From contig OZ024742.1 of the NCBI GenBank assembly GCA_964016885.1, forward strand, positions 93,744,001 through 93,808,000: a DNA stretch of 64,000 bases, read 5' to 3'. Positions within the stretch are counted from its first letter, which is position 1, and every line of letters starts with the position of its first letter. This document shows positions 25,066 through 63,847 of the stretch, in pieces. Source of the stretch: Eledone cirrhosa (Eukaryota). The notes under the pieces are model-generated. The model worked only from the letters and a program-made list of their open reading frames with translations, was not told the DNA's origin and did no database searches. Both the position numbers and the translations under genes were made by a program.

Positions 25066-28010
25066 GTGTGCGCGCGGGGACATAGAAATAATCGGGCTGG
25101 ATGCCCGATCGCGCAGTTAAACCACTGGGAGTGAAGAACCCCTAGCCCTTGTCAGGGCATTCTTCTAGGAGAAGGCATCTCAGGAAACTGGGTTAACTCC
25201 GACATAAAACCTGCGGCTCAGTAGTTACCGATGATGTTGATCTTTTCTTCTTTTCGGGTTATAGCTACTGTCGCTCAGAGAGTGGGATTGGCTCAGTGCA
25301 CAGTCTTTCCTCACTTTAAAAATATTCGTCACGCACAGGCATTGCACGAGTTAATTAATAATCATTAATAGTGTATTATTATTGTTATTATTATTATTAT
25401 TATTATTGTTACTATTATTATTACTTTTTTTTTTCTAATTCAATGATGTTCCGGAACAATATAAAAGAGATAATTGGTAATTTAGGTTCTGGAACAAAAA
25501 AGATAATTGGCAATAAGGGCAGGGGCCCCAGGTTATCACAGCCTGGGCTCGCTCGTCATCGTGCCATTTTAATAGAGCCAAACAAGGCATTTGGTCTTGG
25601 CTGCTGGAACGTACGGACGCTGCTTGACAGGGATTCCTTGGAGCGTCCTGAACGAAGGACCGCTCTTGTTGCAAAGGAGCTTTGACGTTACGATCTTGAC
25701 ATCGTGGCTTTATCTGAGACGAGGTTAGCTGGGGATGGTCATCTTACAGAATTTTGTGGAGAATATACATTCTTCTGCAAAGGAAGAGATGAAGGAACCA
25801 GAAGAGAGGATGGGGTAGGATTTGCTGTTAAGACTGTACTTGTGAATAAATTAGAAGAATTCCCAGTAGGGATTAGTGAGCATCTTATGTCCATGAGAAT
25901 TCCGCTGGACAAAGGAAGATATGCGACCCTGGTGAGTGTGTATGCTCCAACTATGAATTCTGTCGATGAAGAAAAAGTGTCCTTTTACCATGCCTTGAAA
26001 GGTGTTTTAAGAAATATCCCTCAGGCAGACAAAGTCATCGTCTTTGGTGACTTTAATGCTAGAGTGGGTAGGGATTTTAACACATGGAATGTAATCGGAA
26101 GGCATGGGGTGGGAAAGTGTAACAACAATGGTATGCTCCTGCTTCAGATGTGTGAGGAGCTGGATCTGTGTGTTACCAACACCATGTTCCAACAAAAGAA
26201 CAAATTCAAGACCACGTGGATGCATCCTGCATCTAAGGAATAGCATCTTTTGGACTACGTCCTAGTCAGGATGCGTGACAGACAGGATGTGCAGTGTGTT
26301 CGTGCTCTTCGTGGAGCTGAGTGCTGGACAGACCACCGCCTGGTACGCAGAACCTCCGACGCTTGTGGAGGTTGCAGTGGCTATTTCGAAGCTGAACAGT
26401 GGAAGATCTCCAGGTATGGATGACATACATGCTGAGCTCTTACAATATGGTGGTGAGAGACTCCTGCAACATCTTCACTCTTTGTTTGGCAGGATATGGG
26501 CTAATGAATCCGTACCTGAGGACTGGAGCGATGAAGTAATGGTGGTCTTGTACAAGGGAAAGGGTAACAGGAATGATTGTGGGAACTACAGAGGTATATC
26601 ATTGCTTTCTGTCGTAGGGAAAGTTTTATGTAGGGTGCTTCTGGACCGTCTGCTGACACACATTGCAGATTGTGTTCTTCCTGAAAGTCAATCTGGTTTT
26701 CGTGCTGGATGCGGCACTACTGATATGATCTTCTCAGCTAGACAGCTCCAGGAGAAGTGCATGGAACAAGGCTTGGATCTGTATCAGGTTTTTGTCGATC
26801 TGACAAAGCTTTCGATACTGTTAACAGAGATGTATTATGGAAGGTTCTCCAGAAACTTGGTTGCCCTTATAAGTTCTTTGCTTTAGGTCTTTCCATGATG
26901 ACATGAAGGCTTGGGTTAATGTTGGAGGTAACATGTCGGAGCCTATCTCAGTAAAAAATGGAGTGAAACAGGGGGATATTCCAGCACCGACCCTGTTTGC
27001 CATATACTTTGCAATGGTTTTCTGTATTGCATTCAGGAATTGCGAGCATGGTGTTTACATCCGATATCGAACCTCAGGCAGCATATTTAACATCAGGCGC
27101 TTTGCTGCAAATACAAAAGTATTTACATCAATCATAAGAGACCTCTTGTATGCAGATGATTGCAATCTTGTAGCGCACACAGAGGGTAATATGCAGCACA
27201 TTTTGAATGCATTTTCTGACGCTTGCACTGCCCTAGGATTGACTGTCAGTCTCAAGAAAAACGTCGTCATGTACCAACCTGCCCCTGGTAAGCAGTACAC
27301 TGAGCCAAATATCTATGTGTATGGTAAACGACTTGGAGTTGTTGATCAGTTTGTCTACCTGGGAAGCACTGTCAATCGATACAGCAACCTTGACAGTGAA
27401 ATCTCACTTAGGATTAGGAAAGCAAGTGATGCTTTCGGAGAGCTAGAAAGGCGACTCTGGGGTCGGCGAGACATATGCAGGAGGATAAAGGTAAAGGTGT
27501 ACAGGGCATGTGTGCTCTCTTGTCTTCTTTATGCCTGCGAGACCTGGGTCACATATCGACACCACCTTAAGCAATTGGAGCGTTTCCATCAGATGTGTCT
27601 CAGACGGATCCATGGCGTTCACTGGAGGGACCACATCAGTGACGTCGAGATTTTGGAAAGCTCTATGTGTGACAGTATAGAAGCTCTTGTGCTTAAGCAA
27701 TGACTCCCTGGAGTGGTCACCTTGCCAGGATGAAGGATTCTAGAATACCAAAACAACTCTTTTATGGAGAGTTGGTTAAAGGAAAACGACCGCCACATAA
27801 ACAAAAAAAGAGGTATAAGGATTACTTGAAAGCCTCTCTGAAAGACGCTAACATCTCTGCTGATACATGGGAAAATATTGCTGCTGATCGTAATAAATGG
27901 AGAAAGACTGTATATAAGGGAAAAGTTGCCTTTGAGACTCTGCCTAAGCAAAGCTGGACTCGAAAGTCATCTTCGCAGTCATAAAGTAAGACCAGTGGTT
28001 GACTACCATA
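25066..28010 (+). mobile_element. RTE-clade LINE with 5' UTR, APE endonuclease and RT; stop codons, internal deletions, 3'-truncated into (TA)n
   Basis: GCWNVRTLLD, ALSETR, GVGFAV, SVYAPT, GDFNARVG; GVKQGD, LLYADD, FVYLGS, RIPKQLFYGEL. Confidence 0.96.

Positions 28011-28234: not shown

Positions 28235-28235
<1 letters not shown>
28045..28235 (-). mobile_element. SINE 3' part
   Basis: Reverse complement of about 36745-36880. Confidence 0.8.
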
Positions 28236-28272
<37 letters not shown>

Positions 28273-28320
28273 AGACGTAAGATAAGAAAATTATAAAATT
28301 AACTTACTTACTAAAATATC

Positions 28321-28402
28321 ACTTCCAACTAATTAGTTTCTGGAATAGAGTAGATACATCTTCCGAAGAAGGTGTGGAGAAACATCCCGTCATCAGGAAA
28401 GT
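28321..28402 (-). ncRNA. Type I hammerhead ribozyme (inverted copy)
   Basis: Reverse complement of 29182-29263. Confidence 0.8.
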
Positions 28403-29181
28403 CAATTCTCATATAAGTTTCCAGGCAAAGCGTGGACACTGGAAGCTTATTAAAAAATAAATCAGTGAATAGGAAATAGCAAAGCGTGGACTTACTTCCT
28501 AGCCATTGAGAAAATCACTGCCTCTGTGTCCGTGGCAAATTCAGAAAGAATCGAACACGTGACGTCGAGATCAATCGGTGGAAAGTGGGTTGTTAATAAG
28601 ACAGCGGCCAGCCTACTACCGTAGCAGCAGTCATGGCCAGTATTGCTCGACAAATATTTTGGAGATAATAATAAAGAATTTATATCTAGTAACATATATA
28701 TACATACAAATGCATATCGATGCTAGCAAATATATAGGTTTTGTCTTAATAACATTGTGGTTCAATGCATGGGGTTGCAGAACAATAATATAAGAGACGT
28801 AAGATAAGAAAATTATAAAATTAACTTACTTACTAAAATATCACTTCCAACTAATTAGTTTCTGGAATATGCATTTGTATGTATATATATGTTACTAGAT
28901 ATAAATTCTTTATTATTATCTCCAAAATATTTGTCGAGCAATACTGGCCATGACTGCTACTACTGTAGTAGGCCGGCCGCTGTCTTATTAACAACCCACT
29001 TTCCACCGATTGACCTCGACGTCACGTGTTCGATTGTTTCTGAATTTGCCACGGACACAGAGGCAGTGATTTTCTCAATGGCTAGGAAGTAAGTCCACGC
29101 TTTGCTATTTCCTATTCACTGATTTATTTTTTAATAAGCTTCCAGTGTCCTCGCTTTGCCTGGAAACTTATATGAGAATTG

Positions 29182-29263
29182 ACTTTCCTGATGACGGGAT
29201 GTTTCTCCACACCTTCTTCGGAAGATGTATCTACTCTATTCCAGAAACTAATTAGTTGGAAGT
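29182..29263 (+). ncRNA. Type I hammerhead ribozyme with extended stem II
   Basis: actttc CTGATGA cggga...ttcca GAAA ctaattag TT ggaagt. Confidence 0.8.
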
Positions 29264-29435
29264 GATATTTTAGTAAGTAAGTTAATTTTATAATTTTCTT
29301 ATCTTACGTCTCTTATATTATTGTTCTGCAACCCCATGCATTGAACCACAATGTTATTAAGACAAAACCTATATATTTGCTAGCATCGATATGCATTTGT
29401 ATGTATATATATGTTACTAGATATAAATTCTTTAT

Positions 29436-29504
<69 letters not shown>

Positions 29505-30039: not shown

Positions 30040-30640
30040 TGCAACTCACTGCACTGCACCCCACCCCACCACACCGCACCTCACCGCACCACACCTCACT
30101 GCACAACAACACACCACATCACAACACACTATACCACACAACATCACACCACACTTCACTACACCACACTACATCACACCATACTACACCACACCACAGC
30201 GCAACACACTATACCACACTTCACTACACCACACTACATCACACCACAGCGCAACACACTATACCACACTACATCACACAACACTTCACTACACCACACA
30301 ACACCACACTTCACTACACCACACCACAGCACAGCACAACACACTATACCACACTACATCACACCACACTTCACTACACCACACTACATCACACCATACT
30401 ACACCACACCACAGCGCAACACACTATACCACACTTCACTACACCACACTACATCACACCACAGCGCAACACACTATACCACACTACATCACACAACACT
30501 TCACTACACCACACAACACCACACTTCACTACACCACACCACAGCACAGCACAACACACTATACCACACTACATCACACCACACTTCACCACACCACACC
30601 ACACCACATCACAGCACAACACACTATACCACATAGCACC
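30040..30640. repeat. (CACCA/CACTA/CACAA)n pentamer-derived satellite
   Basis: Direct inspection; produces the His/Thr-rich pseudo-ORF 30016..30636. Confidence 0.9.
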
Positions 30641-30654
30641 CACATTTTTTCCTC

Positions 30655-31583
30655 TCTTTTTTTGAGTGCTCTCAACTAATCTGAACTCCAAGATGTTTGC
30701 TATCAACTTTCTCTTCCTGGCAAACAGCTGGGGTTGGTGCACCTCCCTCGTTTAACCTCACCCAGAGTTTTCTCTAAAAATTTTTTGTATGTTATCAACG
30801 AATATGACCTACAAACCAGTTGGAAATGATTAGTTATTCTAGAAAAAGGAGTGTTTGAAGTGGGTGGATAGACCATTGTCATTTTGTAGATATACACTCT
30901 AATAATTTTTCTTTGGTTTTCCTTTGTGTGCTATCAACTAATCTCAACTCTAAGTTTCTCTGATTCAATTTTCTTTCTTGGGATTCGGAAAACTTAATGC
31001 AAATCTAAAACTAAATTAAACTTAAAATTAAATTTAATCCCAACCCTAAAATTAAACCTTAAACCAACCCTAAAATTAAACCCTAAAACTTAAACCAACC
31101 CTAAAACTAAACCCTAAACATTACCCCAACCCTAAACATAAACCTTAAACCAACCCTAAAACTAAACCCTAAACATTACCCCAACCCTAAACCTAAACCT
31201 TAAACCAACCCTAAAACTAAACCCTAAACATTACCCCCAAACCCGTACCCGGGAAAATAAGATTGCAAGCATCTAGGGGGTCAGATTAGTTGATAATATA
31301 GGAAAAATACCGAGAATAATTATGTCCAACGACACATGAGTGGGTGTAGATCTTCGAAACTCTTCCCCCTTCGCTCTCCTTTTACTCCAAAGCTAGTTGT
31401 TTTTGACTGGTTTGGAAGTCATATTCATTGATAACGTATGAAAATAAAGTCGTAGAGAAAATTCAAAGTACGCCGAGGTAATCCAGGGGAAGGAAAAACC
31501 ACCTCACCTCCTCCGTTTTCTTGGAGGAAAAAGTTGGTTTCAAGCATCTTGGAGGTCGGATTCGTTGATAGCACATAAAAAAA
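30655..31583. mobile_element. Non-autonomous inverted-repeat element with nested IRs and an internal CCCTAA(A)-like array
   Basis: Left gtgctctcaactaatctgaactccaagatgtttg versus right caagcatcttggaggtcggattcgttgatagcac; inner IR copies at about 30925 and 31266; array 31010-31240. Confidence 0.7.
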
Positions 31584-34559: not shown

Positions 34560-37500
34560 ACTTTAACCTGAATTCTAACACTAGAAGAAAACACTAACAC
34601 TAATGGTAAACACTAACACTAACCTGATAACTAACACTAACCTGATAACTAACACTAACCTGAATACTAACACTTACCTGAACACTATCACTAAAACTAA
34701 CATTAATCCTAACATTAAGCTGAACACTAACACTAAAACTATCATAACCAGAAAACTAAGCTAACATTAACCTGAACACAAACACTGACGCTAACACAAA
34801 CACTAATACTAAAATTAACACAAAAACAAACACTAATACTAACACAAACACTAACCTGAACACTAACACTAACATTAATCTGAATACTAACGCTAAAAGT
34901 ACACACTAACACTAAAAGTAACACACACGCTAACTTGAAAACTAACACTAAAACTAAAATTAATACTAACATTAACCTGAACACTAACACTAACTAGAAA
35001 ACTAACACTAACCGGAACACTAACACTAAAACTAACACTACCATTAACACAAACACTAACACTAACCTGAACATTAACACTAAAACTAACGTTAACCCTA
35101 ACATTAACCTGAGCACTAACACTAACTAGAAAACTAACACTACCGTAAACACTAACACAAACACTAACACTAACCTGAGCACTAATACAAAAAGTAACAC
35201 TAATATTAACCTGAACAGTAATACTAAAATTAACACTAACCTGAAAACTAACACTAATCAGAAAACTAAGCTAACATTAACCTGAACACTATCACAAACA
35301 CTAACGCTAACATTAACAGAATTACTAACACAAACACTAACACAGAAATACTAATACTAACACTAACACTAAAACTAACATTAACCTGAAATCTAATACT
35401 AAAGGTAAACACTAACACTAACCTGAACACTAACACTAAAACTAACATTAACCCTAACAACAACCTGAACACTAACACTAACTAGAAAACTAACACTAAC
35501 ACTAAAACTAACACTAACACAAACACAAACACTAACACAAACACTAACACTAACACAAACACTAACACAAACACTAACATTAACACAAACACTAAGACTA
35601 ACCTGAGCACTAATACAAAAAGTAACACTAACATTAACCTGAACAGCAATACAAAAACTAACACTAACCATAAAAGTAAGCTAACATTAACCTGAACACT
35701 ATCATAAACACTAACGCTAAAATTAAGAGAAATACTAACACAAACACTAACACAAAAACTAACATTAACACTCAAACTAATATTAACACTAACATTAACC
35801 TGAAATCTAACACTAAAAGTAACATGAACACTAACCTGAAAACTAACACGGATACTAACACTAAAACTAACATTAACACTAACATTAACCTGAATACTAA
35901 CACTAAAACTAACATTACCATAAACACTAACACTAATCTGAACACTAATCCAAAAAGTAACATTAACCTGAACAGTAATACTAAAACTAACACTAACCTG
36001 AAAACTAACACTAACCAGAAAACTAAGCTAACATTAACCTGAACACTATCACAAACACTAACGCTAACATTAACAGAAATACTAACACAAACACTAACAC
36101 AGAAACACTAATACTAACACGATCACTAACACTAAAACTAAAACTAACATTAACACTAACTTTAACCTGAACACTAACACTAAAACTAACATGAACACTA
36201 ACCAGAAGACTAAGCTAACATTCACCTGTACACTAATGCTAACATTAACACCAAATAAAAAAGACTAACACTAACACAATCACTAACACTAATAGAAATA
36301 CTAACGCTAACACAAAATCAAACACTAATGGAAACACTAACACTGACCTTAACACTAACACTCATAATAACCTGAACACTAACACAAACACTAACACAAA
36401 CACTCACTAAAACAAACACTCAATAACTCAAACACTCAATAAAACAAACACATAAACACAAAGACAAACACTAAAACCCTCTAACACTAACAGAGACCTC
36501 AATGCTGACACTGACGCAGATGCCTACACTGACGCAAACGATTATGCTAACGCATGGAGGCTTATGGCTTAGTGATTTGAGCATTGGCCTTGCAATCGAA
36601 AGATTGTGAGTTCAATTCTCAGACCGGGTGGTGTGTTGTTTCGTTGAGCAAGACACTTTATTTCACATTGCTCCAGTTTACTCATCTGTAGAAATGAGAT
36701 GATAAGGACTGGGGTCCCTATCATTCCACTGCAAAGTGGTCGTGGAGGTGCCACAGCAAAAAAGCACTCAGCACTCACTGTAAATGAGGTTGGTGTTAGG
36801 AAGGGAATCCAGCTGTAGAAATCAAGCCAGAATCAGTTCCCGTCCCACCCTTGCAAGCAGGGAAAAGCAGACGTAAAATGAAATGAATGAAATGAATGAA
36901 ATGAATGAATGAAACGCTGACACAATTGCTAACACAAATGCTGACGCAAATGCTAACACAAACGCTGACACAAATGCTAATGTGAATATTGACGCAGGCC
37001 AAAACGTGAATGCTGACGTAGACGCTGACACAGATGCTAACGCAAACACAAACGCTGACACTAACACACATGCTGACGAGGATGCTAACACAAATGCTAA
37101 CTCTGACACAAAAACTGATGCAGACTCTAAAACTGACGCAGACGGTAACGCAAATGCTGACACAGACGCTAACATGAACCCTAATGCTGACATAAACACA
37201 AATACTAATGCTGACACAGACGCTAATGCAAAAGCTAACGCTGACGCAAATGCAGATACAAACACAAATGCTGACGTAGACGATAACGCAGACAATGACA
37301 GCGATACTAACGATCCCTAACGCAGACGTAAACTTTGACGCAGATGCTATAGGAAACGCTGACGCAATTGCTGATGCTATCGCAAAAGCCTATGCAGACG
37401 CTAAGGCAGACGCTGATAGCACCGCCAGCGTTTACGCCGAAGCCGATATACCAACGCAATGCCGATGCGGACGCTAATGCAAACACAAATGCTAACGCTA

Positions 37501-38158
37501 ACGCTGATGCAAATGCTGAGAGAGAGAGACATAACCGCCGACACTGATGTAAACACTGATGCTAAGGCAAATGCTGACGCGGGCATGCCGCCAAAGTTTA
37601 CGCTGACGCAAATTTGTTGAGGCAGAGGCAAACGCTGATGTTGTTGACGGAACCGCTGAGCTAATGCAAACGCTTACGCACATGCTAACGCAAAAGCTAA
37701 TGCTAACGTTGGTGCAAATGCTGAGGCAGACGTATATGCTGATGCAAACGCTGACACAGACGCTAAAGGGAAAGGTTGTCGCAAATACTAACGAAGACAC
37801 TGACGTAAACCCTAACTCAGGCACTGATACAAACACTAACGCAGATACTGATGCAAACACTAATGCAGATACTGATGCAAACGCTAATGCAGATACTGAT
37901 GCAAACACTAACGAAGACACTGACGCAAACGCTAACGAAGACACTGACGCAAACACTAACGCAGACACTGATGCAAACGCTAACGCAGACACTGATGCAA
38001 ACACTAATGCAGATACTGATGCAAACACTAATTGAGAGACTGACGCTAAGGCAAACACTGATGCAATTGCTATCACAAATGCAGATGCTGACGCAAACGC
38101 TGATGTAGATGCTGACACTGATGCAAACGCTAAGGCTAATGCAAACATTAACGCAAAT
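34560..38158. repeat. About 3.6-kb hexamer-derived low-complexity array (AACACT drifting to GACGCA/GATGCA/AACGCT), split by a SINE
   Basis: Direct inspection; 6-nt periodicity retained. Confidence 0.9.
36556..36912 (+). mobile_element. tRNA-derived SINE with CORE-like middle and RTE-type 3' tail
   Basis: A box tggcttagtga, B box gagttcaattc; ttgagcaagacacttt...ccagtttactcatctgtagaaatg is CORE-like; tail shared with the RTE 3' UTR at 50780-50850. Confidence 0.85.
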
Positions 38159-61540: not shown

Positions 61541-63418
61541 TTGATAAGATGGTAATGGGGAATTGCAGGAGGAGACACACTGATCTTGCCATGGGATGGA
61601 TAGACTACAGAAAGGCATTTGACATGGTGCCTCATTCCTGGATCACCAAAAGCCTGGAGATCTTCAGGGTGGCAGATAACATCAGACAGTTGCTAGGCAG
61701 GAGTATGGGGTCCTGGGAGACAGAGTTGACATCAACTGGAGTATCCTTGGGAAGCGTGAAGATCAAGAGAGGTATTTTCCAGGGAGATAGCCTGTCCCCT
61801 CTGTTGTTTGTCCTTGCCCTGATGCCCTTGACCATTATGCTGCGAAAAGTGAGAGCAGGATACAAGTTGGGAAGGGGAGAGCTTACCATCAATCACCTCC
61901 TCTTCATGGACGATCTTAAGCTCTTCGGGAAAAGTGAGAAGGAGTTGGATGTGCTTGTTGACACTGTCCGTATTTTCATCAGTGATATATGTATGCAGTT
62001 TGGTATTGGTAAATGTGGAGTCATTGTGATGAAGAGGGGTAGGTTGAGCAGAAGTAACGGGATCCAGATACCAACAGGTGAGATGATAAAGGAAATTGAC
62101 TCTGAGGAAGGATACAAGTATTTGGGCGTTCTGGAGGCTGATGGCATAAAGAACAAAAAAATGAAGGAATTGTTAAGAACTGAATACATTCGGAGAGTAA
62201 GGAGCGTATTGAAGTCACATCTGAACAGCAGAAATGCCATAAGCGCAGTAAATTCCCGAGCTGTGTCTATTATTAGGTACAGTGCGGGAATTCTGAGATG
62301 GAATGTTGCTGAACAGAAAGAAATGGATAGGAAGACTAGGAAGCTATTGACTATCTACAACATGTTCCACAAGAGGAGTGATGTCGATAGACTCTACCTA
62401 AGGAGATCTGAGGGTGGAAGAGGTCTTATCAGCATAGAGGACTGTGTTCAGATGGAGAAAAACAACCTATACAAATACGTGACCTATAGTAAGGAGCCAA
62501 TGCTCAGAACTGTACTGAAGGAGGGGACAGTAGGCCAGCGGATGTCCAGGGAAGAAATAACATCAAGGAGGAAGAGCAGCCTTAAGGGAAAACCCCTTCA
62601 TAGTACCTTCTTTGAGAAAACTGAATTTAGAGATCCACAGACATGGAACTGGTTGAGAAGAGGAGACCTCAAAAAGGCTACAGAAGGAATGCTAATGGCT
62701 GCGCAGGAGCAGGCCCTCAAAACGAAGTGGTTGAAGCACCATATCTACAAGGAGGAGGCTAGCCCACTGTGCAGGATCTGTGGAGAGAGAGAGGAGACTG
62801 TGGCTCACATTGTGTCCGAGTGTAAACACCTAGCCCAGACCCACTATAAGGGCTGGAGACACGATGTGATGGGCAGGGTGATCCACTGGCACCTGTGCAA
62901 AGTAAACAATCTACCACATTCTGAGAAATGGTATGAGCATAGGCCAGAGGCGGTGATGGAGAACAATCAGGTGAAGGTGCTGTGGGATTTTAGGATACAG
63001 ACGGACAAAAAACTGGAACACAATATACCTGACCTGGTGGTTGTGGACAAAGAAAAAAGATCGTGCCTGATTGTGGATGTGGCCTGCCCGTTCGACACGA
63101 GAGTGCAAGAGAAGGAGAGGGAGAAAATTAACCGATACCAGGACCTAAAGTGGGAGGTGAAAAGGATTTGGAACTGCCATGAAGTCAAAGTGATCCCGAT
63201 TGTCATAGGCGCACTGGGGACTATCTCCAAAAGTTTCCAGGGATGGTTAAAGAAAATCGGCCCCTTCACGCTTTTTGGAACGCTTCAAAAGGCATGCTTG
63301 CTTGGAACAGCAAGAACCCTCCGATACGTCCTGAATATCTGAGGCTGCAGGTAGTGGCTTGATATTCAATCCAACGGACTTTCCAGTTAACCAACATCAA
63401 TGACTGAGATTCAAGGAA
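61541..63418 (+). mobile_element. R4/Dong copy, 5'-truncated but with an uninterrupted RT-CCHC-RLE frame to the stop at 63342
   Basis: WIDYRKAFD, QGDSLSP, FMDDLK, CRIC..ETVAHIVSEC, RHD, PDLVV..DVACP..E.EK. Confidence 0.96.
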
Positions 63419-63454
63419 TAACAATAACAATAATAATAATAATAATAATAAAAA

Positions 63455-63812
63455 TGATCGTGCCTGATTGTAGATGTAGCCTGCCCATTTGACACGAGAG
63501 TGCAAGAAAAGGAGAGGGAGAAAATTAATCGATACCAGGACTTAAAGTGGGAGTTAAAATGGATTTGGAACTGCCATGAAATCAAGGCCGTCCCGATTGT
63601 CATAGGCGCACTAGGTACTATCTCAAAGAGTTTCCAAGGATGGTTAAAGAAGATTAGTCCAGTCCCGCTCTTTGGAACACTTCAAAAAGCATGCTTGCTG
63701 GGAACAGCAAGAACCCTCCGATACGTCCTGAATATGAGGCTGCAGGTAGCGGCTTGATATTCATTTCAACAAACTTTCCAGTTAAATAACATCAATGACT
63801 GAGACTCAAAGA
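63455..63812 (+). mobile_element. R4/Dong 3' fragment flanked by (TAA)n
   Basis: Near-identical to 63059-63418. Confidence 0.95.
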
Positions 63813-63847
63813 ATAATACTAATAATTATTTAATAATAATAATAATA

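Follow-up and report, generated by a model that had tools for sequence, protein, structure and literature searches.

The window analysed here is a stretch of 64,000 nucleotides of Eledone cirrhosa DNA. At positions 28266-29438 it contains an element enclosed by two (TA)n tracts and made up of two inverted, longer-than-unit copies of a 522-nt unit, the arrangement proposed in a preliminary description of this DNA. For reference numbering, the unit S was taken as window 28917-29438 on the plus strand, in the sense of the hammerhead. The features of the locus are as follows.

28235-28265: left (TA)n target tract (28235-28270 as first delimited)
28266-28869, minus strand: left arm, 604 nt, S321-522 then S1-402, with its outer 3′ end at fixed site A
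28322-28401, minus strand: predicted hammerhead motif of the left arm, S267-346 mapped onto the arm, CUGAUGA at 28396
28844-28869, minus strand: 3′ half of a second hammerhead motif (GAAAC, loop III, GUU, helix I strand), lacking the CUGAUGA half
28867-28869: head-to-head joint of both truncated 5′ ends, with a 3-nt overlap, ATA
28867-29438, plus strand: right arm, 572 nt, S473-522 then S1-522, with its outer 3′ end at fixed site B
29183-29262, plus strand: predicted type I hammerhead motif of the right arm, with CUGAUGA at 29188, a long helix II, GAAAC, a palindromic loop III and GUU
29319-29438, plus strand: 120-nt 'tail' separating end A from end B, found on the right arm only, at its outer end
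29439-29490: right (TA)n target tract (29436-29490 as first delimited)

Read on the minus strand from 28869 to 28266, the left arm contains an 82-nt perfect repeat at a lag of 522, and the right arm contains a 50-nt perfect repeat at the same lag on the plus strand. The arms thus measure 1.16 and 1.10 units. Wraps of about 76 and 46 nt had been given before; these values exclude the TA-like ends. The two arms mismatch at 6 positions, and their inner ends lie 152 nt apart on the unit. The unit has a GC content of 0.36 and no ORF, and the longest stop-to-stop frame lying entirely within the element is 77 aa. A long hairpin is predicted in the tail at about 29370-29428. Among reads of other samples, none was found that spanned the central joint. 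On few base differences between the halves, the lack of a credible ORF and (TA)n on both flanks, the preliminary description was accurate.

The neighbouring sequence is also repetitive. A frameshifted LINE on the plus strand (25686-27984), with endonuclease-like and RT frames and an RVT_1 match, stops about 280 nt to the left of the element, and no connection between the two was seen. To the right, strand-skewed C/A-rich arrays at 30057-30633, 31001-31237 and 34590-36420 comprise CACCA-type repeats with a 215-nt higher-order period, CCCTAA-like repeats and a 1.8-kb AACACT array. At 36900-38031 lie degenerate, GCAAACACTAACGCAGAC-like repeats of 12-24 nt whose periods are multiples of three, so that they might be coding. 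At 63053-63847 a 397-nt unit resembling retroelement coding sequence is duplicated in tandem (87% identity).

Each arm contains one complete hammerhead motif. The predicted cut lies after 29257, behind GUU, in the right arm, which is the position proposed earlier, and between 28327 and 28326 in the left arm. Since the left arm begins at S321, its second motif is a half only. An Rfam search of the window did not detect the hammerhead at the gathering or E-value threshold. Across 13 sequences of the family and its sisters, 93.4% of cells were paired, with 22 double changes in helices I and II. None of 500 shuffles reached these values and slid controls paired 31-52%, although two of five measures did not exceed the shuffles. 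Covariation in the family and its sisters supports the type I hammerhead fold predicted for each unit. A pattern search of the genome returned 545 related motifs, and none in a reversed control. The GUU triplet and a C-A at position 10.1/11.1 were counted against activity. The lowest-energy fold predicted for the window copy lacks helices I and II, and within the family, conservation of the catalytic core does not exceed that of other sites (20/2533 versus 531/72362). In PLE-type hammerheads, monomer folding is described as usually weak (PMC4209133).

The genome searched comprises 3.0 Gb. The hammerhead stretch gave 808 first-look candidates, and the family consists of hundreds of dispersed copies. 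We mapped 214 loci, of which 5 duplicate or segmentally duplicated ones were dropped (L017, L018, L023, L029, L080); TA-only false hits were also removed ahead of the counts. This left 165 groups, comprising 61 single arms, 79 two-arm inversions and 25 complex or non-standard arrangements that were not counted. Mean divergence from the family majority was 1.3%, in a sample biased toward young copies. The element appears to be young and retrozyme-like, as first suggested.

Arms of the family have their 3′ ends at S402 (site A) or, 120 nt further on, at S522 (site B). Exact end patterns joined to TA occurred in the genome at 91 A ends and 99 B ends, and at loci picked independently of their ends, 63 of 70 arm 3′ ends were at A or B. 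When 41 pairs of neighbouring ends less than 4 kb apart were compared, 38 were head-to-head and all 38 paired A with B; the other three, all B pairs, were two tandem and one convergent. The 79 mapped two-arm insertions comprised 67 AB, 2 BB, no AA and 10 others. The preliminary description had envisaged differently permuted registers and proposed that registers be mapped genome-wide. The inner 5′ ends do vary, through truncation at different points, but the outer 3′ ends are fixed. Almost all A and B arms (206/209) run into TA-rich sequence, part of this set having been picked by TA-containing patterns. Overlaps of 0-4 nt were found at the inner joint in 45 of the 67 A+B insertions.

At least five sister hammerhead families (L215-L244 and motif hits) were also observed, with a common loop III and a covarying helix II. 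Sister families of 66-94% identity and periods of 518-545 nt have the same two ends, A and B.

Long arrays are rare. Two complete hammerheads are present in 17 of 209 family arms, and a single arm among the 165 groups reaches 2016 nt, or 3.9 units. This arm (L042:2163-4555, G000:C2:139.33 Mb) and an inverted arm have a rare S343 change in common, and other variants are common to subsets of its adjacent units; the array suggests a later expansion at the DNA level. At G000:C1:349.32-349.39 Mb (L016-L018, L027-L029, L043, L044) a block is repeated with periods of about 12.4 and 25 kb. There, family copies stand in alternating forms beside PLE-like RT frames, and include the clearest B+B inversion. 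The PLE-like ORF beside these copies was considered as a parent and rejected; TA/GA tracts and unrelated sequence intervene.

To characterise the template, we examined where arms pass and where they stop. In the end-pattern set, the predicted cut site is crossed by 52 of 67 A arms and 42 of 79 B arms, and 27 of 146 arms are longer than one unit. A cut linear monomer therefore cannot have been the sole template. These results agree with the preliminary description in that reverse transcription was primed twice at a single TA target, with a template extending across the predicted hammerhead cut. Sequences across the cut site were identical in 140 of 169 cases and only one had an insertion there, which speaks for a monomer stage; sloppy template jumping at this site was rejected as unsupported.

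Arm 5′ ends cluster at S342-362, just 3′ of the predicted cut (34/146, against 5.9 expected). The cluster holds at inner joints not joined to TA (17/132 versus 60/1216), and would fit 5′ ends made by cleavage; stalling of RT at helix I, or microhomology to TA, may also play a part. Stops near the cut occur on the second pass as well (14/46 versus 81/924), although for two-arm joints alone (5/27, p=0.12) this was not significant.

Within an insertion, 33 of 595 polymorphic comparisons between arms were discordant (5.5%), compared with 17.4% in 1000 shuffles, none of which was as low. Four lineage markers were discordant within insertions in 4 of 118 cases. Thus both arms of an insertion derive from one source lineage. 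In LINE-1 twin priming, two target ends prime on one RNA to yield an inversion. Here, in contrast, the second site is fixed and the arms often overlap on the unit. The classical twin-priming geometry was rejected, as the inner ends of B arms show no significant concentration at site A (11/67 versus 3/36, p=0.37).

Insertions of Penelope-like elements (PLEs) are known to comprise an inverted 5′-truncated copy, with a tail at one of the two inverted pLTRs and microsatellites as targets (PMC3846280, PMC8557442). The family has this type of footprint, with an inverted truncated copy, a tail on one end and (TA)n targets. In vitro, the tail of a PLE lies between two internal RT start sites and both strands are cut and extended, with a dimer predicted (PMC11167929).

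The genome contains many GIY-YIG loci (10,596 candidates), some with RT and open frames of 636-1096 aa. Each of the inverted autonomous RT plus GIY-YIG elements examined (L281, L287) has one tailless and one tailed end and lies in TA. Fixed A and B ends, together with autonomous PLEs of the same tailless-plus-tailed layout, make it likely that the element is a non-LTR retrozyme moved by a PLE. One PLE family (L278) has a CX4CXXC linker, a motif described for Neptune (PMC8557442). This PLE family also possesses a minimal hammerhead, and about 55 nt separate its two ends; exact matches to its tail number 1268 in the genome. In all, six loci (L275, L276, L277, L278, L281, L287) contain Neptune-type PLEs, with open frames up to 1096 aa, and two of these families have two 3′ ends, giving tails of roughly 55 and 64 nt. 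The first 900 nt past the ORF of the L275 family showed no standard hammerhead. There is about an even chance that a Neptune-type PLE, the likeliest donor, supplied the enzyme.

We looked for a direct link between the unit and an autonomous element. BLAST comparison of the unit with autonomous PLE ends, in the flanks of 17 PLE loci and 52 loci in all, a small part of the 10,596 candidates, returned only TA runs and unit copies. In the mapped loci, which are best-matching and exact-end copies, the unit was nowhere continuous with an RT plus GIY-YIG ORF. Nor was any examined copy a pLTR attached to an ORF, the plain alternative named in the preliminary description.

One chimera was observed at L207:1919-2622 (G000:C28:32.11 Mb), where the 5′ end of a retrozyme arm is fused to 155 nt of L278-family 3′ UTR. 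The PLE piece is 92-95% identical, includes the hammerhead and stops without downstream continuation. This single case may be a template switch that points to the mobilising enzyme; pieces of the L278-type stub are common, occurring in 10 of 244 loci.

The element belongs to a known class, the animal non-LTR retrozymes, and its layout is the known footprint of PLEs. Like metazoan non-LTR retrozymes (PMC7229834; 10.64898/2026.07.22.740005), it is ORF-less, has one type I hammerhead per unit, a low GC content of 36%, a stable predicted fold and a tandem wrap, and shares its genome with PLEs. It had been thought larger than typical members of this class, but 522 nt lies within the published range of animal retrozyme unit lengths, 51-972 bp (10.64898/2026.07.22.740005). 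Metazoan non-LTR retrozymes form long arrays, whereas the family has mostly arms of 1-1.6 units and few with two complete hammerheads; its cleavage and circles are putative, and no sequence link to a PLE pLTR was found in the flanks compared. Two fixed ends with A+B pairing were not found in the accessible descriptions of these retrozymes.

Endonuclease-positive PLEs (PMC3846280, PMC8557442) resemble the family in head-to-head inversion, a tail on one end, 5′ truncation, microsatellite targets and the lack of a visible TSD. They differ in that the family is ORF-less, its arms may exceed the unit and its tail is 120 nt, compared with 30-40 nt in PLEs. The Poseidon PLE of Anolis in vitro (PMC11167929) likewise has a tail delimited by two internal RT start sites and an AT-rich target, cuts and extends both strands, and uses uncleaved RNA. 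Its start sites, however, reportedly do not differ between strands, and one-of-each pairing is unreported in the accessible text of that study, whereas the family pairs A with B. The family also shows TA target microhomology at its start sites and 5′ ends clustered near the predicted cut. With PLE minimal hammerheads (PMC4209133) the motif has in common a short helix III with a palindromic loop, a long helix II whose 5′ end bears an unpaired base, and opposite-strand pairs 100-700 bp apart. Its distinguishing features are the GUU triplet, one additional A ahead of GAAA, and a helix II domain of 47 nt. For PLEs and retrozymes together, neither one-of-each A+B pairing nor the 120-nt tail was found in the accessible main texts.

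The preliminary description had read the locus as the footprint of a circular RNA. The layout alone is no proof of a circle, because inverted arms with one tail are the PLE signature and are also found in the autonomous PLEs of this genome. We therefore looked for changes repeated in successive turns of wrapped arms. Rare A>G changes in the sense strand were present in both turns in 7 of 16 cases, as against 8 of 90 for other changes (T>C 0/10, others 8/80). This test, from which L027 was left out, gave p=0.0015 for alleles with up to 6 carriers and p=0.008, 0.015 and 0.09 at limits of 3, 2 and 1; the repeats comprise 7 events in 5 insertions, and the last value is that for strictly private alleles. 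No overall excess of A>G was found (52, versus 62 T>C), single-turn A>G (9) equalled the T>C background (10), and sharing of A>G between arms was not significant at three of four thresholds. Of the shared A>G events, 13 of 18 are preceded by U; counted as distinct sites, the figure is 8 of 13 (p=0.06). At S466, in a UAG context, G is present in both turns on two lineages. Such contexts are preferred by ADAR. Marks in both turns point to a putatively edited unit that was copied twice, either at insertion or in an ancestor.

In the window copy, no A>G mark is repeated. Its arms carry different family alleles at three linked positions, S43, S48 and S58, each allele being present in 9-72 other insertions. 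The two arms are therefore not plain copies of one monomer circle; their difference would need two slightly different units or later gene conversion. Both arms nevertheless hold the rare alleles C124 (2/89 insertions) and T321 (3/108). Across the family, alleles were discordant in 7 of 346 comparisons between turns and 17 of 562 between arms, where new mutation would give about 2 and 3. The predicted circular fold of the unit has a z of about -4.2 relative to 60 shuffles, and the linear fold a z of -3.6. A circRNA route has been proposed for retrozymes, and circles have been demonstrated for other animal retrozymes (PMC7229834).

For the family, the balance tilts slightly towards a cycle in which the hammerhead releases a unit RNA, ligation closes it into a circle, and reverse transcription may go round it more than once. 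Against this stand the small number of A>G events, the mostly non-significant test between arms, the stops on the second pass, the nested variants of the 3.9-unit arm and the allele differences of the window arms. The circular reading of the preliminary description thus gains moderate support from A>G marks in sister copies, while the window locus itself, judged by its sequence, is not a clean footprint of a circle stage.

Four other accounts were weighed. That both window arms came from a single monomer circle, primed twice and copied beyond a full turn, would explain why both wraps are perfect and why C124 and T321 are common to both arms. The stable predicted circular fold, the A>G marks in sister copies and, by analogy, the circles of other animal retrozymes are also in keeping with it. 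We regard it as unlikely, since S43, S48 and S58 would require a later conversion tract, the repeated A>G mark is absent from the window copy, and both arms exceed one unit in just 5 of 67 A+B insertions. A linear tandem transcript without a circle, its hammerheads mostly uncut and its 5′ end sometimes made by cleavage, is doubtful although it has several points in its favour. By analogy, the Anolis PLE uses mainly unprocessed RNA in vitro (PMC11167929); stops at the cut occur on both passes, allele discordance between turns and between arms exceeds that expected from new mutation, and the 3.9-unit arm has variants common to subsets of its units. Copying with 5′ truncation would, however, merely shorten arrays, yet long arrays are rare. 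The units of an insertion almost always agree in lineage markers, and a tandem transcript does not readily account for A>G marks in both turns when single-turn A>G is at the level of T>C.

Self-priming, in which the first cDNA folds back to template the second arm and RNA is primed only once, has been proposed for PLE inversions (PMC3846280). The arms start at the identical base in 5 of 67 A+B insertions and within 25 nt of each other in 17 of 67 (shuffle mean 9.7, p=0.01), and some joints use the loop III palindrome. In 34 of 67, however, neither arm can be contained in the other. The window copy is among these, and with its inner ends 152 nt apart fold-back copying is excluded for it. As a general account fold-back is very improbable; it may apply to a minority of copies. 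An assembly artefact, or an inverted duplication of a satellite at the DNA level, is hardly credible. The missing joint-spanning read would allow it, and some arrays do show DNA-level duplication (the C1:349.3 Mb cluster; nested variants in L026). An artefact is nevertheless unlikely because 67 other or same-type insertions have this layout with different inner joints. Duplication would also have to account for strict A+B pairing with unique joints at many loci, for the 6 differences between the window arms, and for the recurrence of end A joined to TA in independent runs.

In the reading we prefer, the locus is very probably a head-to-head insertion of a 522-nt non-LTR retrozyme with two fixed ends, likely written from both DNA ends by the RT and GIY-YIG endonuclease of a PLE. 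The minority of copies with two hammerheads would be transcribed, and unit RNA would be released and probably ligated. A dimer of a Neptune-type PLE could then bind the unit RNA or an uncut multimer. Both (TA)n strands would be nicked, with one DNA end priming at A and the other at B. The cDNAs would run 5′-ward until they stop, often just 3′ of the hammerhead cut, and the truncated ends would be joined by microhomology of 0-4 nt. For the window insertion, two slightly different units may have been used, from a mixed multimer or two RNAs, or one arm may have been gene-converted later.

More tentatively, and with rather less confidence than an even chance, we suggest that the PLE dimer uses an A-to-I-edited circular RNA asymmetrically, A at one end and B at the other, and continues beyond the point of ligation, so that editing marks appear twice per arm. 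If so, the circRNA route of retrozymes and the one-tail inversions of PLEs would become one testable mechanism, and the genome would retain direct scars of circular-RNA retrotransposition. The family bears on the origin of single-tail PLE inversions and on circles as templates for retrozymes. It offers rules that can be counted: the use of one start site of each kind, a tail of 120 nt, 5′ ends that stop close to the cut, and editing-like marks repeated per turn. The need for an in vitro PLE system has been voiced (PMC8557442), and a compact one could be built from the 522-nt RNA and a Neptune-type protein of this genome.

One position within helix II behaves differently from the rest of the unit. 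Site S292 (window 29208 and 28376) is hypervariable throughout the family (T 91, A 32, C 28, G 2). It was discordant within 16 of 48 insertions, compared with a background of about 1%, and T was present in each discordant case. The site is not linked to a marker 28 nt away, and discordance is slightly higher with age. Hairpin-templated correction, or misreading of a modified base by RT, are guesses at the cause. In one sister family, all 17 of 17 copies have T at this position.
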